Shown: positions 16,773 through 29,937 of the stretch, one piece after another | Numbering within the stretch: position 1 is the first letter of the stretch | Layout: each line of letters starts with the position of its first letter | Assembly: GCA_021160575.1 (NCBI GenBank) | Contig: JAGHCH010000008.1 | Span: 1-57,758, forward strand | Source: Thermoproteota archaeon | GTDB taxonomy: Archaea > Thermoproteota > Methanomethylicia > Methanomethylicales > JAGHCH01 | DNA length: 57,758 nucleotides | Reading direction: 5' to 3' | Translations under genes and position numbers: made by a program | The notes under the pieces: model-generated | The model's input: the letters and a program-made list of their open reading frames with translations, nothing else | Told to the model about the DNA's origin: nothing | The model's database searches: none

Positions 16773-16882
16773 GGGCACTTCTAGGGAGCTATCCCTAGAA
16801 GCCGTAGCGGTCGTCTAGCCTGGTCTAGGACGTCGCCCTGACGCGGCGAAGGTCCCCGGTTCAAATCCGGGCCGGCCCACCA
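16773..16882 (+). tRNA. tRNA-Val(GAC) with a 31-nt non-canonical intron between positions 4 and 5; CCA encoded
   Basis: Exon 1 is GGGC (16773-16776), the intron is 16777-16807 and contains the perfect hairpin CUUCUAGGGA-GCUA-UCCCUAGAAG, and exon 2 is 16808-16882. The spliced product is GGGCCGG-UC-GUCU-AGCCUGGUCUA-GGAC-G-UCGCC-CUGACGC-GGCGA-AGGUC-CCCGG-UUCAAAU-CCGGG-CCGGCCC-A-CCA, a perfect cloverleaf. Its D arm is nearly identical to the tRNA-Arg at 49975. An alternative exon 1, GGGCUGG at 16753-16759, is possible. Confidence 0.7.
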
Positions 16883-20658: not shown

Positions 20659-21310
20659 ACTTTTCGACGAACTCTCGCACTCCAAGCCCGTTTGGCCTCT
20701 CGCAGATGTAGTCTGCGAGTTCTTTGAGCTCTGGAACAGCGTTTGCTACAGCTACCTTGAAGCCCGCCACTTTGAAGAGCTTGATGTCGTTTTCTCCATC
20801 GCCTATACAAGCAGTCTGCGTGGGGGGTACATTTAAGATCTTTAAAGCCTCTCGAAGCCCGTGCTCTTTATCGACTCCTCTTGGAAGCACCATTACGCGA
20901 TCTCTGTTGACCTCTAGGTGGGCTAGCTGCTCTAAACCAGCTTCTAGGAGTAGGGCTTCCACGCGAGGCTTGTAGCCCACGTTCAGTGAAACTACGACTT
21001 CGCCTATCTCCATGGTGGGGTCTCCAACTCGTTCAACCACCAAGCCTTTAATTGTGCGCCATTCCCGCGGAGAGAAGGCCTTGATGACTCCTTGGCCGGG
21101 AGCATATAATATGGCTCCATTCTCAATCACCAGTAGGTGAAAGACCTCGAGCACGCGAGGGGCGAGATCTTGGAGGCGTCTACCAGTGACTAGAAGCAAT
21201 TTCACTTGATTGCGCACTTTAGCTAGCGCGTCTAGAGCAGCTTGGCTGGGTTCAAGGGATTCAGTGGTGACTGTACGGTCGTAGTCACAAGCTAGAGCTG
21301 CGATCTTCAC
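20639..21310 (-). CDS. HAD-IIB (Cof-type) phosphatase
   Basis: ALACDYDRTV (DxD), LLVTGRR, and IGDGENDIKLFKVAGFKVAVANA. Confidence 0.8.
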   Translation of the reverse strand: MKIAALACDYDRTVTTESLEPSQAALDALAKVRNQVKLLLVTGRRLQDLAPRVLEVFHLLVIENGAILYAPGQGVIKAFSPREWRTIKGLVVERVGDPTMEIGEVVVSLNVGYKPRVEALLLEAGLEQLAHLEVNRDRVMVLPRGVDKEHGLREALKILNVPPTQTACIGDGENDIKLFKVAGFKVAVANAVPELKELADYICERPNGLGVREFVEKFIAAKH

Positions 21311-24300
21311 TGGAACCCCTCCTTGCGTTTAAGGGCTTGAAGAGCTAGGTGTAGGAGGTATATAGACTTGCAGTTCTCAGCGGCGTAGGCTTCGAGTTTT
21401 TCTCCGAGGAATTTTGTGAAGTTGTGCCACTTGCCGGGAGGGGCTTGTGAAATCCTCTTCTGGGAGTTAGCTGCCTCGTATAGGACGTCGGAGATCGATG
21501 TTGACCTCTGATACTCTATGATCTTCTCAACCTCCTCTAAGGGGGCGACGCCGACTTCCAGTATCTTTTGGGTTTCCCCTTTGACGTCGATGAGCTTGCC
21601 CTCCTCTCTTAGAGAGCGGAAGAGCAGGGAGGCGAGGCGCAGCTCAACCGCCTCGAGAGTTCTTGACATTGAGGGGAGGTCATAGACTAGAAGGGTGAAG
21701 CCTTCATTGACCAGCTGGGATAGCTCTTGATCTACGCGGGAGGCATCTTTGGTGTAGCTGAAGTCCCTCAGCAGGAGGTGTGTTCTGCAAGATTCGCCGT
21801 CGAATACGCCCACGCAGATTAAGCCAGTGTCAGCTTTCTCCATCAATGGCACGTAGGTTACATCGAAGGAGGCAAGCTTAAGGGCTTTAGAGGGCTTTGG
21901 TACGCTAAGCTCAACGCCTTTAACCTTCAGTAGCAGACTTTCCTCGAGGAGGATGTAGTCGAGCACTCGTAGAGCGAAACGCTTGGCTTGCTCCCAGTCT
22001 AGGCCTAGGGTGATGAAGTCGGCGTAGGTGTACTCGTCGAAGGACTCCATCAGCACCTCATCAAGCTCTTCAGGCTGATATTCCTCCACAAGCTTCTTCA
22101 CTTGCAGCCAGTCGAGCTTCTCAAGTAATCCAGCGCTCTCCGGCTCGTGGAGACCCATGAACTTCTTCTCGCCAACCTTCCCCACGTCGTACATGATAGT
22201 CTCGAAGGGTATGCGCAGCTTCTTTCTAAGAACTATCATGAGCAAGGCGAGCCCAATCCTTATGAGGCGCACATCCTCGGCGGGATCTAGTTCGTAAAGC
22301 ATGCCATAGGTGTAGTCAGAGTACTTGCCGTAAGTCGGTGTTGGAACTTCTATTACTCTGAAGTCTCTAAAGGTGATGGTCTTGCCGTCCATCCTCTTTA
22401 CCCTAGGTGCTGTGCTAATCACTCTCCAGAGGACTCTGTTGGGGATCTTGATGTATCTCCCAAATCCCCGCCTAGGCGGGTAGACTACACATCTAACCTC
22501 GGAGTGCAGTCTGCCGTAGAGGTAGTCTGATAGCAGATTGGGAGGTTCACCCCATCTGATCTTGGCCTCTTGGTACTCCTCGAGGGCTTGAGCGAGGGCG
22601 TCCCTCCTCCAGAGGTTGGCTTCACGAAGCTCCTCTTCAACCACCGCTGTGACTATCCTGCCAGTTCTTCCGCCGAGCCTATGCTCGACAACTATTCCAT
22701 CTGCCGTGTAGTCTATGCATCCAGGCTGGAATTTTTCGACGAGATCGCAGTGGGAGATGCTCTCTAGGTAGCGGAAGCCATCCTCCACTTCGAGTATCCT
22801 ATTGATTCCATAAGGAGGAGCAAACTCGTAGAAGTTCATGTTTAGCCATGCTTCCTTGCCCCGCTGTGTTAGCTCGCCTCTCTTTACTAAGCCCAGCTTT
22901 TCGAGGAAGGAGAGTTCCTCTTTGGTGAGCAGCTGCCTCAGCTTTGGCGAGATGAACTTGAGCAGTGCCTCGAAGAGTGTTAGGTACTTGTTTTGAGGGT
23001 TGATGATCACCTTCTCAATGGGCATTTGCAGCCACGACTTGAGAGCCTCCACTCCACGGGATAGTATGTCACGATCCCACTTGCTTCCGGGGATGATAAC
23101 TGTCTCTGAGAAGCCCAGCTCTTCTCGCCTTCCCTTGCGTCCCTCCCTTTGATAGAACTCTCTCAAGCTCTCTGGAAGACCTACATGCACTATTCTGACC
23201 ACCGTGCCTATATCTATACCCTGGCTGAGAGTCCTCGGAGAGATTAAGACCTTCACTCTACCAGTTCTAGCACCTTCTTCAACTATTGCGCGATATTCCT
23301 TTGATGCCAGATGGTGATGTGCCGCGACAGCCTGGGCTGATTCGCCCTCAAGAGAAGCACGCAACTTTCTTGCAAGCTCCTCGGCTTTAGCTATCCCTCT
23401 GGTGAAAACCAAGGTTACCCCTGAGTCGTAGACATAGCTCTTCAGAATCTCTATGGGATCCGGATCTAGGGGAGGCACTTGAAGACCTATAGCTCGAGCT
23501 GCCTCCACCACGCGGTATACTTGGCTTTTGAAGAAGGTGAAGTCATCTAATGCCTTGGCTACATCCTCCCCTACGCCAGCTTTGAGAAAGGAGTCCCTCT
23601 GCTCTCGGAGCTGCCTCCAGAGGGATTGGAGGTTCCTTCCAAGCACTATGTACACCCGATTCTCGACCCTGAAGGGTGGACCTACGATTATGGAGGTTTC
23701 CCTTCCATTAACCATGGTGAAGAATTCAGCCAGCTCTTCCGGGTTTTCGATGGTTGCCGTGAGGGCAGCTAGTTGAAAATTGGGTTCTAGAAGCTTGGAA
23801 AGGATGTCTACGAGAGCCAAGAGGAGGGCAATTTCCCGAGGGCCATAGAAGTCTATTTCATCTAGAACAATCAGCTTCACATTGTGTAGAAAGCCATCGA
23901 GGAGAGAGCCTCGAGGAGAGACAGCCATCTTCTTAACTTCATGGAGGAGGAAAGCAGGATTTGTCACTATGATCTCTTTCACGGATAGAGATGCCCTGAG
24001 CTTTGTTCTCCCCTGCACCTTCAGTAGCTGATCTCTTCGGAGGGCATCAATAACTTCTACATCCGATCCGACCACTTGGCTGTAGCTTTGAATTCGCCTT
24101 ATCTGGTCATTGGCTAAGGCAAGGGTGGGATACACTGCTAGGGTAGGGATTCCGTTTTTCAGGGCGAAGAGGAGCCAAGCTTCAGTCTTGCCGGAGCCAG
24201 TGCCTGACTTCAAAATCACGTTTCTCCCGGAGTTGAGAGCTTCGAGGGCTTCCACTTGATGTCGGTAGAGCTTCCTGCCGGAGAGGTCAGGTAGTCTGGG

Positions 24301-24429
24301 TATTAGATCGTCGAAGGTGAACTCAGCTAGCTCTGGCTTAGCTGGCGGCTCGACATAGGAGTAGTAGTCGTAACCAAGCCTTTCCAAGATCTCTCTGGTG
24401 TCAATGCGTGCAAGGGAACTCAAGGGCAT
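21307..24429 (-). CDS. large SF2 DEAD/DEAH-box helicase with an uncharacterised C-terminal region of about 560 aa
   Basis: LYRHQVEA (Q), SGTGSGKTEA (I), VLDEIDFY (II), LTAT (III), ISPRTLSQGIDIG (V) and QREGRKGRR (VI) all lie in the first 480 aa or so. The remainder has no motif I recognise. Its stop overlaps the HAD start by 4 nt. Confidence 0.8.
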   Translation of the reverse strand: MPLSSLARIDTREILERLGYDYYSYVEPPAKPELAEFTFDDLIPRLPDLSGRKLYRHQVEALEALNSGRNVILKSGTGSGKTEAWLLFALKNGIPTLAVYPTLALANDQIRRIQSYSQVVGSDVEVIDALRRDQLLKVQGRTKLRASLSVKEIIVTNPAFLLHEVKKMAVSPRGSLLDGFLHNVKLIVLDEIDFYGPREIALLLALVDILSKLLEPNFQLAALTATIENPEELAEFFTMVNGRETSIIVGPPFRVENRVYIVLGRNLQSLWRQLREQRDSFLKAGVGEDVAKALDDFTFFKSQVYRVVEAARAIGLQVPPLDPDPIEILKSYVYDSGVTLVFTRGIAKAEELARKLRASLEGESAQAVAAHHHLASKEYRAIVEEGARTGRVKVLISPRTLSQGIDIGTVVRIVHVGLPESLREFYQREGRKGRREELGFSETVIIPGSKWDRDILSRGVEALKSWLQMPIEKVIINPQNKYLTLFEALLKFISPKLRQLLTKEELSFLEKLGLVKRGELTQRGKEAWLNMNFYEFAPPYGINRILEVEDGFRYLESISHCDLVEKFQPGCIDYTADGIVVEHRLGGRTGRIVTAVVEEELREANLWRRDALAQALEEYQEAKIRWGEPPNLLSDYLYGRLHSEVRCVVYPPRRGFGRYIKIPNRVLWRVISTAPRVKRMDGKTITFRDFRVIEVPTPTYGKYSDYTYGMLYELDPAEDVRLIRIGLALLMIVLRKKLRIPFETIMYDVGKVGEKKFMGLHEPESAGLLEKLDWLQVKKLVEEYQPEELDEVLMESFDEYTYADFITLGLDWEQAKRFALRVLDYILLEESLLLKVKGVELSVPKPSKALKLASFDVTYVPLMEKADTGLICVGVFDGESCRTHLLLRDFSYTKDASRVDQELSQLVNEGFTLLVYDLPSMSRTLEAVELRLASLLFRSLREEGKLIDVKGETQKILEVGVAPLEEVEKIIEYQRSTSISDVLYEAANSQKRISQAPPGKWHNFTKFLGEKLEAYAAENCKSIYLLHLALQALKRKEGFQ

Positions 24430-24526: not shown

Positions 24527-24721
24527 GTGCCTAAGGAGGTCTACAGCAGGGAGGAGTTCTTGGCTTTAGCTGAGAAGGCCTCTGAGTGTCGGGTGAAGAG
24601 GCTTAAGGATATGGTGAAGCTAAAGCTGCGGACCAAGAGGTACCTCTACACCTACAAGGCGTCGCCGGAGGAAGCTGAAGAGCTGATTAAGAGCCTCAAG
24701 ATTCCTGTGAGGGAAGTTTAG
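24527..24721 (+). CDS. rpl38e: ribosomal protein eL38
   Basis: (M)PKEVYSREEFLALAEKASECRVKRLKDMVKLKLRTKRYLYTYKASPEEAEELIKSL parallels eukaryotic MPKQI...VKFKVRCSRYLYTL...EKAEKLKQSL. GTG 24527 has GAGGTG 8 nt upstream. The ORF track starts at GTG 24518. Confidence 0.8.
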   Translation: MPKEVYSREEFLALAEKASECRVKRLKDMVKLKLRTKRYLYTYKASPEEAEELIKSLKIPVREV

Positions 24722-26001
24722 AGAACTACCTTCTCTCCAAGCTTAGCTGCCATCGCTTTGAAGCCCACTTCATCGCGTATCCATGCTGCAAATTCTTTGC
24801 AAGCCTCGGCTTCTCCATGCACTGTAACTACTGTGGGGCTACCCTTGAGGGATTTCACCAGCTCATGTAGCTCCTTTCTACCGCAGTGCGACGAGAAGTC
24901 GAGCCACTCTACCCGGCACTTCACCTTCACTGGCTTTCCCTTCAACTCGTATCTGCCCTCATCTAGAAGTCTTCTGCCCGGGGTGCCGGGTATCTGGTAT
25001 GAGACAAGGATTACTGCATCCTTTGGGTTCTTGGCTACCTTTTCCATGTAGTAGGCAGCTGCACCGCCAGTGAGCATTCCAGCGGGGGAGACCACCACTC
25101 CTGGACGTTTCCTTACTTTTTCTCTATCTTTGCCCCCTGTAACGAAGTGGGCTTTCTTTACTGCTCTGCGAAGCAGCTCGGGGTCTCTGATTTCCTTTGG
25201 GTGCTGGATCAAGATCTTGCTGGCAATTCTAGCCATTCCATCCACTGCCACCGGGTATTCGAAGCCGTGAGCTTCAAGAATGCAGAGGATCTCTTGTGAT
25301 CGACCTACAGAAAATGCGGGTACAAGGGCTAGCCCTCCTCCATCAACCACATCGCTTAAGACCTCTATCAGCTTGCGCTCATTTTCCATTCTATCGGGGT
25401 GGTCTGTGAGGGCATAGGTGCTTTCGATTATTGCTAGGTCTACCTCGGGAAGGCCTTCAAGGGAGGCTCCAGTGAGGAGTCGGGTGTCAATGGTGTTGAT
25501 GTCCCCTGAATACCAGATGTATCGTCCCCCTATTTCCACGAGCACTGAGAGGCTTCCAGGGATGTGTCCGGCTCTGAAGAAGGTGATGGTTGCATCCTTC
25601 ACCTTTACCGTCTTCTCGGCTTTGACTTTCCTCGTGTTGTCGAGCATAGTTACAAGCTCTAGGACTTCGAAGGGAAGATAGTAGTGGGAGAGGTTGAGGA
25701 GGTCGCGGATCAAGATGTCTGAGAGCTGCTTTGTGAGAGAGGTGGTGTAGAGGGGTGGCGTGCAGGAGATGTAGAAGAAGGGAACCGCGCCGCTGTGGTC
25801 GAGGTGTGCATGTGTTACGATTATGGCGTCTATATCTCTTGGAGGCACGTGAATGGGAAGTTCTGGCTTGCCGTCACCCACCAGAACTCCATAGTCTAAG
25901 AGGAGTCGAGTGTTTCTATATGACATGAGAATGGCAGATCTACCAACTTCCCTTGCTCCGCCGAGAAAGCGAACTTCAACTTTATCCTTCATGTGCCTCA
26001 T
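24718..26001 (-). CDS. beta-CASP MBL ribonuclease (aCPSF2-type, no KH domains)
   Basis: VRFLGGAREVGRSAILM, IIVTHAHLDHSGAVP, and C-terminal beta-CASP motifs ending VVTVHGE. Confidence 0.85.
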   Translation of the reverse strand: MRHMKDKVEVRFLGGAREVGRSAILMSYRNTRLLLDYGVLVGDGKPELPIHVPPRDIDAIIVTHAHLDHSGAVPFFYISCTPPLYTTSLTKQLSDILIRDLLNLSHYYLPFEVLELVTMLDNTRKVKAEKTVKVKDATITFFRAGHIPGSLSVLVEIGGRYIWYSGDINTIDTRLLTGASLEGLPEVDLAIIESTYALTDHPDRMENERKLIEVLSDVVDGGGLALVPAFSVGRSQEILCILEAHGFEYPVAVDGMARIASKILIQHPKEIRDPELLRRAVKKAHFVTGGKDREKVRKRPGVVVSPAGMLTGGAAAYYMEKVAKNPKDAVILVSYQIPGTPGRRLLDEGRYELKGKPVKVKCRVEWLDFSSHCGRKELHELVKSLKGSPTVVTVHGEAEACKEFAAWIRDEVGFKAMAAKLGEKVVL

Positions 26002-26108: not shown

Positions 26109-26846
26109 GTGAGCGCTTCTGGAGGAGTCGACGTGACTGTGGAGTTCCACGTGAAAGCTGGGGATTTGAAGGGCTGCATTTTGGTAACGGGTTTTCACGG
26201 CATAGGCGCTACCGGGTATATTGCTGTGAAGCACTTGGTGAGCTCTCTCAAAGCAGAGCTCATAGGGTACATTGAAACTACGAGAACGCCGCCTTTTGTC
26301 TCGGTTGAAGAGGGGAGGCTGAATCTGCCCTTCCAGCTGTATAGGCATGGAAAGCTGGTGTTTGTGCTCACAGAGGTGCCTCCTCATCCGAGAGAGCGCA
26401 TTGAGTTTTCCAGGGCCTTGGCGAATTGGGCTATTAAAAACAGCTTTGACTCTGCATACTTGATCGGAGGGCTGGACAGTAGGCTGAGAGAGCGAGAAGA
26501 GGATCGTATGAGGTGTGCGGCTACCACCGCTTTTATGAAGCGGTGGAAGGCTGATGTAATGCTCTTGGAGAAGGGTCTTTTCGTAATAGGTCCTCTAGCT
26601 ACCATGCTGACGCACTTTGAGATCATGGGGTTCCCGGCGATAGCGCTTTTGCCTTATGCAAATCCAGCTAGACCAGACCCTCTGGCAGCAGCTGTGGCTG
26701 TAGAATACTTGAATAAAGTGTTTGGGATGAAGGTGGATGTAGATCCGCTGAAGAAGGATGCCCAAAAGATTGAGGCTGAAATTCAGGAGTTGATGAAGCG
26801 GAGGAAGGAGCGCATAGAGCCAGAGACTGGCGCACTATATCTTTAG
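26109..26846 (+). CDS. PAC2-family (proteasome assembly chaperone-like) protein
   Basis: ILVTGFHGIGATGYIAVKHL and LLPYANPARPDPLAAA patterns are typical of the archaeal PAC2/COG1938 family. Start uncertain. Confidence 0.65.
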   Translation: MSASGGVDVTVEFHVKAGDLKGCILVTGFHGIGATGYIAVKHLVSSLKAELIGYIETTRTPPFVSVEEGRLNLPFQLYRHGKLVFVLTEVPPHPRERIEFSRALANWAIKNSFDSAYLIGGLDSRLREREEDRMRCAATTAFMKRWKADVMLLEKGLFVIGPLATMLTHFEIMGFPAIALLPYANPARPDPLAAAVAVEYLNKVFGMKVDVDPLKKDAQKIEAEIQELMKRRKERIEPETGALYL

Positions 26847-27431
26847 CCTTGAAGCTCTTACCTCTCCTTTGAGGATAGACTGGAGAACAGAGTTGACTGT
26901 GAAATCATTGCAGCAAACTTCGGTGAAGGCTGCTCCTATACCTTCTACTCGATGAGCATCGCTACCTCCTACGCCGGGCTTGCCTAGAAGCTGGGCTGCT
27001 CTTTGAGCTTCACGGTTGGCATAGGATTTGGATTTTGCGTTGAGCACTTCAAGGGCATCCAAATTTAGGTCGAAGCACAGTTCCATGAGGCTGTTACGCT
27101 CTGGATCGAAGGGGTGTGCTGCTATGGTGATGCCCCCTTGCTTCTTAGCCTCATTGATGAGCTGCCAAGCATCCTTGAGAATCGGGGGGCTTCGAAGTCC
27201 TAGGATTATTATGTCGCCTTGACTGGTGGTCACCTCCACTCCAGGGATTATGAGCAAGTCCATGTGATACGCTAACCTCTCAGCTTCCTTGATTGCTGAA
27301 ACAGCATCGTGATCTGTGATGGCGGCGCCATCTAAGCTCAAATCTCTCAGAGCTGTTAAGAGCTGCCTAATGGAGATGGAACTATCTGGGGAGCATGTGG
27401 TATGCACGTGGAGGTCTAGCTTCAGCTTCAA
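26835..27431 (-). CDS. PHP-domain metal-dependent phosphoesterase (TrpH/YciV-like)
   Basis: DLHVHTTCSPDS, ITDHD, GVEV, AAHP and GGSDAH are PHP motifs I-IV. Its start overlaps the stop of the GGDEF-like gene (ATGA). Confidence 0.85.
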   Translation of the reverse strand: MKLKLDLHVHTTCSPDSSISIRQLLTALRDLSLDGAAITDHDAVSAIKEAERLAYHMDLLIIPGVEVTTSQGDIIILGLRSPPILKDAWQLINEAKKQGGITIAAHPFDPERNSLMELCFDLNLDALEVLNAKSKSYANREAQRAAQLLGKPGVGGSDAHRVEGIGAAFTEVCCNDFTVNSVLQSILKGEVRASRLKI

Positions 27432-27940
27432 AGAACTACCACCTTGTTACCTCCCATTCTCTTGGCTCTTTGAAGAGCTCGAAAAGCTAGTAAGCGGAGA
27501 GGGGTTGCTCGATAGGCATCTCTCCTCTTAGCTGGCTTGGAGGTGCCTATAGCTCCAAAGGCCACCCCGATGCTGACTGTAGCGCCGCTGCCTGTCTGCA
27601 GGCCTATTTCTTCAATGCGTTTTCTGATTTTTCCGAGGTCTTCTAGAAGGGCTTCCTCATCTACTGAGGGGAACTCCAACACCGCTTCCTCGGTGCCCCT
27701 CTCTTCATCTAAGCCGTGGATCACCGCTCCGAAATGCTTTGAGATTAGTTCTTTGACAAGCATGGTAAGTTCGGAAGTCACCGGGTTTGGTGTGTACTCA
27801 GACCAGCCTGTTTCCCTGACTATTTCCTTGAACCTATCTAAGTCGATGATTACTACTGCCCCTCTAACTGCCTTACTAGGCTCCATAAAGCTGAAACCAC
27901 TTCCTCTGCGAGCTCGTTTGGGGATTTGGCTTCCCGCCAT
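27428..27940 (-). CDS. stand-alone GGDEF / Cas10-palm-like nucleotide cyclase-polymerase domain protein
   Basis: AVVIIDLDRFKEIV aligns with lDiDhFKxiND; IHGLDEERGTEEAVLEF with the GGDEF/GGEEF position; ATVSIGVAF with vTiSiGva; LLAFRALQRAKRMGGNKVVV with AdxALYxAKxxGRNxv. ATG 27886 (MEPSKAV...) is an alternative start. Either start overlaps the tgtA 3' end. Confidence 0.65.
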   Translation of the reverse strand: MAGSQIPKRARRGSGFSFMEPSKAVRGAVVIIDLDRFKEIVRETGWSEYTPNPVTSELTMLVKELISKHFGAVIHGLDEERGTEEAVLEFPSVDEEALLEDLGKIRKRIEEIGLQTGSGATVSIGVAFGAIGTSKPAKRRDAYRATPLRLLAFRALQRAKRMGGNKVVVL

Positions 27941-29472
27941 TCTATGAATAGTAAAGGTTTGGGAATAGAGTGTTCTATCAGCTGGAGGAGCTCTCGTGGA
28001 CTGCAGAGAACTGTGGCCTTGTAACGGTGCTTTTTGATGATTGAGAGGAGCCCTCTCGCCATGAGCTGAAGGGAGCGCTTAGAAGTGGGTTCAATGCACG
28101 ACTCGTGCTGAGATAGCGGATATACCTCATCTAGCTCCTCTGGAATTACTCCAAAGGCTGAACTGAGAAATACTACGTGCAATGTTTTCTCAAGTTTTTT
28201 GGGAAGCTTGCTGGCGAGTATTGCCTTGTAGAGGGGACCTTGATGCAGGGGCTTTTGCGGGGATTCAGGAAGAATGAGGAGTATTTCCTTTGGAGGAGGA
28301 AGGTAGCGCTCCTCAAGTCTAGATAAGTGCCTCTCCACCTCTGGTCTGTTGAGTGACGTTTCATCGAAGAAGAAGATGCCTCGCGGAGAGCCTCTCGTTA
28401 CAGGGTCAAACTTCTCGAGGTACTTTGTGTACTTGCCTAGCCGCTTAAATGCTTGGTAGAGCAGTGGATGAGATCGGCATTTCTCCTCTAAGTATTCCCA
28501 GAGGGTGCCCTCTTGGATTCTCTGCTTTATTGCCCGGATTTCCATGGCAGTTATGTAGAGGTTGTGTCGAGCAATGAGCTTCTCTCGCTCTTCTTTGGGG
28601 AGTTCCTTAAGTTCCTCGGCAGTGGTTTTTCTACATACTGGACAGCTGCAGGGAAGTTCGTGGAGGTGCTCGATTTTCACCGTTCGTGTTGGGAGCATGT
28701 AGCGATTATCTCTGGCGAAGATGGCGTAGGCTGCTGAGTCAAAGAGGTCGCAGCCAAGTGCTACGGCTAGGGGGAGGATCATGGGATGCCCAGCGCCAAA
28801 GAGGTGTAGAGGGCGATTTAGAGGGAGATTCAGACGGGCGGTAACTATCATGTCGACTAGCTGAGGATAATCGTACTGCTCCATTATCTGCGTAGGGCTC
28901 CCCAGTGCGTGAATATGGAAGTCCATAGAGCCTATTTTGCGGGCGCAGTAGGCTAGGAGATCGAGGTAGGTTCCACCTTGAATTGGCCCAACCCACAGTA
29001 TGGATGGATCGCTACGCAGAGATAGACTCTCTTCAGCGCGCCTCAAGGTTTCTCTCACAGTTTCCTCAGCTCTTGCGCGCGTGGCTTCACCTCCAGTGGG
29101 CACGTCTAAAATTACCGCGATATCACTACCCATGGATTCTTGAAGCCAGATTACCTCTTCAGGGGCGATCTCAACATCGCCATATAAGAGGAGCTGATAA
29201 GCGCCAGAATCCGTCATTATGGGACCCTTAAACCCTAGTAGGTGGTGCACCTCAACGTTGACCGGAAAGTGCTTTTTAATCAAGTATGCATTAGTTATGA
29301 GAGCCTCAAACCCGTATTCCTCGGAGATTTCCTTCGGAGGAATGGTGATCTTAACGGGATTGACAACTGGGAGAAGAGCAGGAGTTTGTATCACCCCCCT
29401 TCTAGTTTCAAGTTCTCCTATTTTCCCAGCTAGGTCTTTTTCGATGACCTCAAACACCAAGAGCGGGAACAC
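27853..29472 (-). CDS. tgtA: archaeosine tRNA-guanine transglycosylase (ArcTGT)
   Basis: GKIGELETRRGVIQTPALLPVVNP, MTDSGAYQ, GLGSP-like core, and Zn site CSCPVCRK. Confidence 0.85.
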   Translation of the reverse strand: MFPLLVFEVIEKDLAGKIGELETRRGVIQTPALLPVVNPVKITIPPKEISEEYGFEALITNAYLIKKHFPVNVEVHHLLGFKGPIMTDSGAYQLLLYGDVEIAPEEVIWLQESMGSDIAVILDVPTGGEATRARAEETVRETLRRAEESLSLRSDPSILWVGPIQGGTYLDLLAYCARKIGSMDFHIHALGSPTQIMEQYDYPQLVDMIVTARLNLPLNRPLHLFGAGHPMILPLAVALGCDLFDSAAYAIFARDNRYMLPTRTVKIEHLHELPCSCPVCRKTTAEELKELPKEEREKLIARHNLYITAMEIRAIKQRIQEGTLWEYLEEKCRSHPLLYQAFKRLGKYTKYLEKFDPVTRGSPRGIFFFDETSLNRPEVERHLSRLEERYLPPPKEILLILPESPQKPLHQGPLYKAILASKLPKKLEKTLHVVFLSSAFGVIPEELDEVYPLSQHESCIEPTSKRSLQLMARGLLSIIKKHRYKATVLCSPRELLQLIEHSIPKPLLFIEWREAKSPNELAEEVVSALWSLVRQLEGQ

Positions 29473-29490: not shown

Positions 29491-29937
29491 TTAAGGGAAC
29501 CGCGCAGCTTTTTTCTCGGCAACGAATTGATCGTAGATTCTCTTCACCCTTTCGTACATGGGTCCGGTACCTTCAACTCCTTGCGGTGTCACCTTGATGC
29601 GATCCATGACTGTGATGAGATTGGCTTCCTCGTACACCTTAACTAGATTTGGAAAGACCTTTTCAAGCCTCTCCGCCAATCCTTGCAGATCAAAGGGCTC
29701 TTCTTCGAGAATGATCTCAGATACAGCTTCACCCCGCACGATAACGCGTGGGTGATGCTCCCCGGTGCTCGCTTCGACGTCGGCTAAGCATAGGCTTAGA
29801 GATACGGGGTCATAACCGAGAAGCCTCCCTCTAAAAACTTTGTCTCTAACTGTTGTGACCGCCACGCGTTTACCAAGGAGTAGTGAGAGTTCTGAGAGGA
29901 AACGCTTGCTAGCACTTGTTGAGCTCAACGAACTCAA
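29491..29937 (-). CDS. Sm-like archaeal protein with C-terminal extension domain (SmAP3-type)
   Basis: LLGKRVAVTTVRDKVFRGRLLGYDPVSLSLCLADVE (Sm1) and VIVRGEAVSEI (Sm2), plus an extra domain of about 70 aa. Confidence 0.7.
   Translation of the reverse strand: MSSLSSTSASKRFLSELSLLLGKRVAVTTVRDKVFRGRLLGYDPVSLSLCLADVEASTGEHHPRVIVRGEAVSEIILEEEPFDLQGLAERLEKVFPNLVKVYEEANLITVMDRIKVTPQGVEGTGPMYERVKRIYDQFVAEKKAARFP

Follow-up and report, generated by a model that had tools for sequence, protein, structure and literature searches.

We describe here a short stand-alone GGDEF-like protein whose gene overlaps that of a PHP-family phosphoesterase in the window, that is, in the whole 57,758-nt stretch of DNA analysed (Thermoproteota archaeon, GenBank assembly GCA_021160575.1, contig JAGHCH010000008.1, positions 1 to 57,758). 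The protein belongs, at the level of fold, to the GGDEF/nucleotidyl-cyclase palm superfamily; as judged from the alignments, it keeps an intact two-metal centre and has rewired specificity residues. Operon coupling of such genes to a PHP gene recurs in several distant archaeal lineages, and the PHP link is a robust neighbour link. We tentatively propose that the pair consists of a synthase of a free di- or oligonucleotide and a PHP hydrolase, a reading to which we give a rough probability of 0.4.

The initial annotation had reported a gene for a GGDEF or Cas10-palm-like cyclase of 152 to 170 amino acids (aa), and all of the sequence blocks it quoted (IIDLDRFKEI, HGLDEE, RGTEEAV, TVSIGVAF, and ALQRAKRMGGNKVVV) are present in a minus-strand open reading frame (ORF) that extends over 27428-27940 when read from its first ATG. 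Only the shorter length is supported by the homologues. We place the coding sequence at 27428..27886 (minus strand, 152 aa, ATG at 27886, TGA stop at 27428-27430), because the close homologues are 152 aa long and begin at M19 and because a Shine-Dalgarno-like element, GAGGAAG, precedes the start at 27886; nothing of this kind lies upstream of 27940. A translation check, the AlphaFold2 (AF2) model, and the Foldseek search were made on this reading. The 18-codon N-terminal extension of the 170-aa reading (27887..27940, minus strand) is probably untranslated, the close homologues P0001-P0003 having 152 aa. The stop codon overlaps the TTG start codon of the PHP gene in the tetranucleotide TTGA (27428..27431, minus strand; read directly from the sequence), an arrangement of translational coupling; the overlap had been placed correctly and misread as ATGA. 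An identical 4-nt stop/start overlap is called in L070, a relative that is 89% identical. The PHP gene itself (26835..27431, minus strand) encodes a minimal PHP-family phosphoesterase of 198 aa, with E-values of 5.8e-9 to PF02811 and 1.8e-15 to PF13263. Its 3' end overlaps by 12 nt (26835-26846) with that of a convergent gene for a PAC2 proteasome-assembly chaperone (26109-26846, plus strand). Promoter/terminator, tRNA, and Rfam scans around the GGDEF-like gene show nothing relevant.

As a single sequence, the GGDEF-like protein scores below the curated cut-offs of both diguanylate cyclase models, with 11.7 bits (E 0.22) against a cut-off of 23.8 for PF00990, and with 19.8 bits over the full length (E 5e-4) against a cut-off of 37.4 for TIGR00254. 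PF00990 is matched at E<=0.01 by 2 of 30 family members, and the GdpP-type GGDEF model PF24898 is matched, weakly, by 3 of 30. A family profile was built from 30 sequences. Searched against the sequences of the PDB, it matches the GGDEF domain of DosC with an E-value of 2.2e-5, and nearly all of its 24 matches are GGDEF domains; with E-values up to 10 allowed, and with 9pd0 and the Cas10 chains included in the library, only GGDEF and designed proteins are returned. Among 1.84 billion representatives, the profile finds 38 family clusters at E<1e-10 and, after a gap, canonical GGDEF proteins at whole-library E-values of 1e-7 to 1e-3. At the sequence level, the similarity to GGDEF domains is thus well above chance.

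The structural comparison leads to the same fold. The AF2 model has a predicted local distance difference test (pLDDT) score of 92.3, a predicted template modelling (pTM) score of 0.88, and the element order beta-alpha-alpha-beta-beta-alpha-beta-alpha-beta. In Foldseek it matches 3ezu, WspR, DosC, PleD, and SadC with a probability of 1.0 and template modelling (TM) scores of 0.54-0.66. GGDEF domains come first in the list, followed by class III cyclases, by the Panoptes mCpol protein OptS (9pd0) at rank 17 (E 3e-5, TM 0.55/0.67), and then by Cas10; a structural search of a viral library again yields matches to GGDEF proteins. The GGDEF-type palm fold proposed in the initial annotation is therefore supported by the family profile and by AF2/Foldseek, and the PF00990 profile on which it was to be checked recovers the single sequence only below cut-off. 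The annotation was also right that the protein carries no sensor, CARF, or transmembrane domain: it is a single domain throughout and matches no other Pfam domain.

Conservation was counted in 116 distinct family sequences. The first metal-binding motif, D15-L16-D17 (27836..27844, minus strand), lies at the end of beta1 and aligns with D327-I-D329 of PleD. The GG[DE]EF equivalent is R63-G64-T65-E66-E67 (27686..27700, minus strand), as the hidden Markov model (HMM) alignments to DosC, 3ign, and about 70 canonical GGDEF representatives place G64-T65-E66-E67-A68 on G-G-[DE]-E-F. In the family signature, R-G-T-E-E-[AV], the second Gly has become an invariant Thr and the Phe an Ala or Val. The initial annotation had these parts reversed, with HGLDEE at the GGDEF position and RGTEEAV as the insertion; RGTEE is the signature, and GLDEE belongs to the insertion. 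G58-L59-D60 (27707..27715, minus strand) starts this insertion, a family-specific stretch (G58-L59-D60-x-x) that makes the beta2-beta3 hairpin 6 residues longer and is gapped in canonical GGDEFs. Two further motifs stand out: P33-N34-P-V-T37 (27776..27790, minus strand), a family-specific motif at the N-terminus of helix 2, and the C-terminal A141-K142-R-M-G145-G146-N147 (27446..27466, minus strand), which corresponds to the canonical AKxxGRN. D15, D17, N34, T37, G58, T65, and E66 are present in 116/116 sequences, G64 and E67 in 115/116, P33 in 114/116, and Y31 in 112/116; K142 is found in all 110 of the sequences that are ungapped there, R63 in 108/116, and D60 in 104/116, with Asn in the other 12. 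The acidic motifs are thus conserved in orthologues, a point that the initial annotation had marked for checking. In Asgard-type members (L057, L066, L067; P0035, P0049, P0056, P0061), WGLNxxEGTEE replaces YGLDxxRGTEE, so that D60->N co-varies with R63->E; this suggests a D-R pair of structural role within the hairpin rather than a metal ligand.

Compared with PleD-type enzymes, the metal ligands are retained, D15/D17 falling on D327/D329 and E66/E67 on E370/E371. The phosphate- and guanine-binding residues are another matter. Among those compared, only K442 is kept (K142); N335 is replaced by V/T/M/I, R446 by Gly (G145/G146), and the guanine-reading D344 by the invariant N34, and K332 varies. 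Upstream of the signature we saw no RxxD I-site motif. Bacterial diguanylate cyclases (PleD, WspR, DosC) are the best sequence and structure matches and share with the family the fold and the equivalently placed DxD, [DE]E, and AK motifs, but the family differs from them in having the RGTEE signature and the 6-residue insertion, in lacking an N-terminal sensor or dimerisation domain, and in that its labelled members are archaeal. By its scores, its signature, and its specificity residues, the protein falls outside the diguanylate cyclase family proper (PF00990/TIGR00254) as that family is defined by sequence.

The partner is a PHP protein by Pfam, with 36.9 bits to PF02811 (cut-off 26.4) and 56.7 bits to PF13263 (cut-off 21.3), and its translation contains HxH at residues 8-10, LHVHT, DH, E, AAHP, and SDAH, followed by a PHP_C tail. 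The best full-length model is NF038032, a generic CehA/McbA metallohydrolase domain, which is approached with 79.5 bits against a cut-off of 80. The protein resembles TrpH/YciV (RNase AM, adenosine 3',5'-bisphosphate (pAp) phosphatase) in the N-terminal HxH motif, the PHP_C tail, and an N-terminal similarity to NF041577 (40.5 bits, cut-off 400), NF047791 (38 bits, cut-off 375), and the structures 3e0f and 7ug9; 9etk is a further match in the PDB, and 7ug9 is RNase AM, a 5'-3' exoribonuclease. It differs from TrpH/YciV in its length, 198 aa compared with about 280-300 aa, and in that the matches span only about the first 80-95 residues (residues 3-79 for the two NF models). In the equivalog comparison it does not qualify as a full-length TrpH/YciV pAp phosphatase or RNase AM.

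We next examined the neighbourhoods of the family. ORFs were called in all loci and clustered, and HMMs built from the clusters were searched; genes within 1.5 kb were counted in 105 distinct loci. A PHP gene occurs in 19/105 loci, in 18 of these 19 on the same strand, and the pairs mostly overlap or lie within a few dozen nucleotides of each other. Both gene orders are found. The GGDEF-like gene precedes the PHP gene in the Methanomethylia group (the window, L070, L078-80), L067, and L066, and it follows the PHP gene in Theionarchaea-/Thermococci-type contigs (L060-62, L103, L104, L106-109, with L108 checked by eye) and in L073. A divergent PHP arrangement that includes a minimal nucleotidyltransferase is found in the Heimdall-type contigs L057 and L101-102. 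Two PHP sub-types, 27% identical to each other (E 5e-7), are represented among the pairs. Since a genome holds only few such PHP genes, the recurrence is not due to chance. The adjacency of the cyclase-like and PHP genes, which the initial annotation had marked for testing, is real and recurrent, in both orders and in several distant lineages; the adjacency to tgtA, the archaeosine tRNA-guanine transglycosylase gene that lies upstream in the window, is not supported as a link. When the window neighbours were searched by tblastn, tgtA adjacency was found in 0/69 species-level loci, and outside the window tgtA stands beside the GGDEF-like gene only in L070; a family-wide link to tgtA was rejected, the adjacency being limited to close relatives.

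Other phosphoesterases also occur near the gene. An SbcD-like metallophosphoesterase (TIGR00024) lies within 1.5 kb in 24/105 loci, and this neighbour and TBP (25/105 loci) are confined to Desulfurococcales and Acidilobaceae. In L057 (472-3019, Heimdallarchaeota), the GGDEF-like gene is situated between a divergent operon of the nucleotidyltransferase and PHP genes and a gene for a 192-aa SpoT/RelA-type HD hydrolase; this locus is a cluster of nucleotide-metabolising enzymes. In L077 (4782-6237), the 292-aa protein P0063 joins an RNase M5-like Toprim domain to the GGDEF-like one, with RGTEQ in place of RGTEE; an overlapping gene for a 197-aa PHP protein follows, and a DUF167/YggU gene precedes. 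No second Toprim fusion was found among 5.8 billion clustered proteins, where a search with P0063 gave stand-alone Toprim proteins only, and the fusion was rejected as a Rosetta stone because it is a singleton.

So far as labelled, the family is archaeal. In a pattern scan with each species represented by a single genome, 69 loci were found, all archaeal, which span Desulfurococcales, Pyrodictiaceae, Acidilobaceae, Ignicoccus pacificus, Nezhaarchaeales, Geoarchaeota, Theionarchaea, Thermococci, Heimdall- and Promethearchaeota, and metagenome-assembled genomes (MAGs) of Methanobacteriota from vents. With the profile search, the family grows to at least 315 protein clusters at E<=1e-5, and Hyperthermus butylicus, Pyrodictium occultum, P. 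delaneyi, and Stetteria are represented among them. Members are 130-200 aa long, and every taxonomically labelled one is archaeal; the closest named relative of the window protein is a Candidatus Methanomethylia MAG protein annotated as "GGDEF domain-containing protein". Canonical GGDEF domains are rare in archaea, as the initial annotation stated (PMC5847659, PMC10249747), and according to Galperin et al. in 2018 the sole one detected in an archaeon up to then was that of Methanocella arvoryzae (PMC5847659). Earlier, MK0296 of Methanopyrus kandleri and APE1864 of Aeropyrum pernix had been listed as "truncated" GGDEF sequences (Galperin, 2005; PMC1183210), and the MK0296 family was predicted to be active, with its three acidic residues kept (Anantharaman, Iyer & Aravind, 2010; PMC2904730). 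MK0296 and APE1864, like the proteins described here, are short stand-alone archaeal GGDEF-like proteins that keep the acidic residues and have no signalling-domain partners, and their lineages (Methanopyrus; Aeropyrum, of Desulfurococcales type) fit the range of our family, which includes the Methanobacteriota vent MAGs (L064, L068, L069), Acidilobaceae, and Desulfurococcales. Our family is likewise short and archaeal, retains the acids, and lacks signalling fusions, the Toprim fusion being the only fusion found. From the matching lineages and architecture, the window gene is very probably a member of these MK0296-type archaeal GGDEF relatives; MK0296 and APE1864 are not among the best 120 matches listed in the profile search. 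The linkage to PHP or RNA-modification genes and the signature analysis are not reported in the papers on MK0296 and APE1864, and we found no paper that reports PHP linkage of the family.

Our best guess from the residues retained is that the GGDEF-like protein is a catalytically active nucleotidyltransferase dependent on nucleoside triphosphates (NTPs). An NTP would be bound with two divalent metals on D15/D17 and E66/E67, with K142 on the phosphates, and the nucleoside monophosphate would then be transferred to a 3'-OH. By analogy with the characterised close relatives (GGDEF, mCpol, and Cas10), the protein would form a homo-oligomer in which the partner subunit holds a second nucleotide as the acceptor, and the reaction would yield a di- or oligonucleotide, either linear or cyclic. 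The Panoptes mCpol, a stand-alone palm of similar size, is active as a homo-oligomer, and Asn or Ser at its base-reading position tunes the use of G versus A (PMC12657218). Because the residues for guanine and the gamma-phosphate are replaced by the equally invariant N34, T37, and GGN, the product need not be cyclic di-GMP (c-di-GMP). The coupled PHP phosphoesterase could hydrolyse the product or a linear intermediate, or could remove pyrophosphate or phosphate, and the SbcD-like metallophosphoesterase may fill its role in Desulfurococcales. In this scheme we infer the activity, the oligomerisation, the substrate, the product, and the role of the PHP protein.

Besides the PHP pairing, the synthesis of a free nucleotide is favoured by the L057 locus, with its minimal nucleotidyltransferase and SpoT-like HD hydrolase, and by the long-term conservation of the family, whose clusters include Hyperthermus, Pyrodictium, Stetteria, and Ignicoccus. 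Several observations weigh against it. In about 60% of the loci, among them most of those from Pyrodictiaceae and Nezhaarchaeales, no phosphoesterase lies closer than 1.5 kb; in Desulfurococcales, TBP usually stands between the gene and the metallophosphoesterase, a pattern that may represent no more than inherited synteny; and in several lineages the coupled partner is an RNA-modification gene in place of a phosphoesterase. K332, N335, and R446 of diguanylate cyclases are unconserved, which leaves room for a weak or altered binding of NTP. Receptor or effector genes (CARF, PilZ, SAVED, riboswitch) are seen beside none of the members. In the literature, c-di-GMP was undetected in the archaea examined (PMC10249747), and the MK0296 family was judged improbable as signalling proteins by Anantharaman et al. 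(PMC2904730).

The coupling to RNA-modification genes bears on a second explanation, in which the palm would extend or activate a terminus of a tRNA, rRNA, or small RNA after the fashion of Thg1 and a PHP, Toprim, or SbcD-like esterase would trim or dephosphorylate that terminus, the whole being an RNA maturation or repair module. The RNA-modification gene to which the GGDEF-like gene is translationally coupled varies with lineage. The GGDEF-like gene follows tgtA in the window and in L070; it follows a gene for an NcsA-like tRNA thiolase, with TTGA or ATGA overlaps, in L030 and L033; and it precedes a gene for an NSUN/PUA RNA 5-methylcytosine (m5C) methyltransferase in L064, L068, and L069, where the two genes either overlap in GTGA or are spaced 7 nt apart. 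In L073, the genes for a SpoU methylase, an AAA_18 kinase-like protein, the PHP protein, and the GGDEF-like protein are all co-directional. The NSUN/PUA methyltransferase gene occurs in 8/105 loci in total; in Nezhaarchaeales (L002, L010, L032, L085, L088) it lies divergently upstream, with a TRAM-domain gene downstream. The Lsm-like gene at the head of the window block, the fusion of P0063 to an RNase M5-type Toprim domain, and the finding that RNase AM is one of the nearest relatives of solved structure for the PHP N-terminus also speak for a substrate of RNA, and an RNA-specific nucleotidyltransferase activity was raised for some GGDEF domains by Anantharaman et al. in 2010 (PMC2904730).

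Against an RNA substrate, the neighbour enrichment is modest and at most suggestive, with RNA-modification coupling in about 4 of about 17 independent arrangements compared with about 1 expected, a rough count for which the classes were picked post hoc. Use of an RNA primer is not known from any characterised GGDEF, mCpol, or Cas10 palm, the protein lacks fingers or an RNA-binding module as in Thg1, the structural match to Thg1 is weak (E 0.03, viral library), and the Toprim fusion stands alone. Among our explanations, an RNA-end nucleotidyltransferase ranks second, somewhat below the synthesis of a free nucleotide. The initial annotation had named an RNA- or tRNA-related nucleotidyl transfer linked to ArcTGT as its alternative; the NcsA-like, NSUN/PUA, and SpoU couplings lend some support to the first part, and the link to ArcTGT, the tgtA product, is not supported.

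The replaced NTP-binding residues could instead indicate a non-catalytic nucleotide-binding or regulatory subunit, which would bind or slowly hydrolyse NTP and regulate the partner phosphoesterase, as does the degenerate GGDEF domain in GdpP/YybT (GGDEF plus DHH/DHHA1). K332 is variable, N335 is absent, and R446 has become Gly; the weak matches of a few members to PF24898 point in the same direction; and the tightness with which the two genes are coupled in translation suggests that the protein forms a stoichiometric complex with PHP. The family resembles GdpP/YybT in pairing a GGDEF-like domain with a metal-dependent phosphoesterase, but here the two are separate proteins, PHP takes the place of DHH, and the catalytic acids are kept intact. 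Loss of the acids of the two-metal site is typical of degenerate GGDEF domains, whereas these four are essentially invariant across phyla, and most members have no adjacent phosphoesterase to regulate; a purely regulatory role thus seems improbable. A role in anti-virus signalling like that of mCpol/Panoptes or Cas10, in which the palm would make a cyclic nucleotide that controls an effector, was rejected as highly improbable: the model matches OptS and Cas10 palms, and the size and stand-alone architecture are like those of mCpol (PMC12657218, PMC12657230), but the family has no detectable sequence similarity to mCpol or Cas10 and its profile matches GGDEF, the PADLOC scan gives no match, phage and plasmid collections hold no family copies, inspection of the neighbours finds no CARF, SAVED, or transmembrane effector reliably adjacent, and the contexts are those of housekeeping genes (TBP, tgtA, ribosomal L38e, TFB, glutamate dehydrogenase) rather than of a defence island, with synteny stable within orders. 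The specific affinity to Cas10/mCpol suggested by the initial annotation is not supported by the same results.

In the window, the GGDEF-like and PHP genes are preceded on the minus strand by tgtA (27853..29472, 539 aa; TIGR00432, E 4.5e-171, with PF01702 and PF17884) and by an Lsm/SmAP-like gene (29491..29937, 148 aa; PF14894 Lsm_C on the L070 orthologue and a weak snRNP match). The 5' end of the GGDEF-like gene overlaps the 3' end of tgtA (stop at 27853), as had been noted, by 34 nt from the 152-aa start and by 88 nt from the 170-aa start. The Lsm/SmAP-like gene, 18 nt upstream of tgtA, is probably the first gene of a co-directional four-gene block (Lsm-like, tgtA, GGDEF-like, PHP), in which we read tgtA as belonging to one transcription unit with the two genes that follow it. 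The tgtA product has TGT and DUF5591 domains and no PUA-domain match, and is apparently a PUA-less ArcTGT.

Further neighbours in the window encode ribosomal L38e, a beta-CASP RNase, the PAC2 chaperone, a weak RpoG match, and TFB, and these surroundings are housekeeping genes. The beta-CASP/metallo-beta-lactamase RNase (24718-26001, minus strand, 427 aa) matches the aCPSF1 model at 172-628 only and so lacks the KH domains; it also matches the type VII CRISPR Cas14 model with an E-value of 3e-63, and it is probably a housekeeping enzyme of aCPSF2 type. A 1040-aa DEAD/Helicase_C protein (21307-24429, minus strand) has no Pfam match in its C-terminal 600 residues or so. A 75-nt tRNA-Val(GAC) is called by ARAGORN at 16808-16882 (plus strand), of which Rfam covers model positions 5-66 only (40 bits).

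Outside the window, TBP, glutamate dehydrogenase, FeoB, TldD/PmbA, phosphoglycerate-dehydrogenase-like, and MoaA-like radical SAM (12/105 loci) neighbours were rejected as functional links; we treat them as inherited synteny because they recur within single orders and in many cases on the opposite strand. PTPS/QueD-like and ERCC4 nuclease genes lie divergently upstream in loci of Geoarchaeota type and related ones (L001 867-1364, L074 998-1456, and the upstream genes of L030/L033); on the downstream side, the GGDEF-like gene is accompanied by a gene for a radical SAM protein of 571 aa with a zinc ribbon of HMPTM type. The QueD/PTPS-like neighbour of the Geoarchaeota-type loci had hinted at a 7-deazaguanine/pterin theme with tgtA; it is weak, below threshold, and on the opposite strand.

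A broader form of the free-nucleotide reading is that archaea have their own nucleotide-messenger or nucleotide-product pathway, in which a divergent GGDEF-type synthase (DLD...PNxxT...RGTEE) and a dedicated PHP hydrolase would serve a housekeeping function from Asgard to hyperthermophilic Thermoproteota, with a product other than c-di-GMP and possibly with a tie to the modification status of tRNA or rRNA. We regard this as a speculative proposal that is rather unlikely to hold in full. GGDEF-based signalling is regarded as essentially bacterial, and the family places an apparently intact catalytic centre in cultured hyperthermophiles and in Asgard-labelled genomes. It appears to have been noted in 2005 and 2010 and never characterised, its members having carried the labels "hypothetical" or "truncated GGDEF" from 2005 on, and the recurrent PHP pairing is apparently unreported. 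The GGDEF-like/PHP operon is a concrete two-protein system for in vitro work. Its product would show either an archaeal nucleotide signal derived from GGDEF or an RNA-acting branch of the palm, as Anantharaman et al. speculated, and either outcome would fill a gap in the evolutionary picture that joins Thg1, GGDEF, and Cas10.

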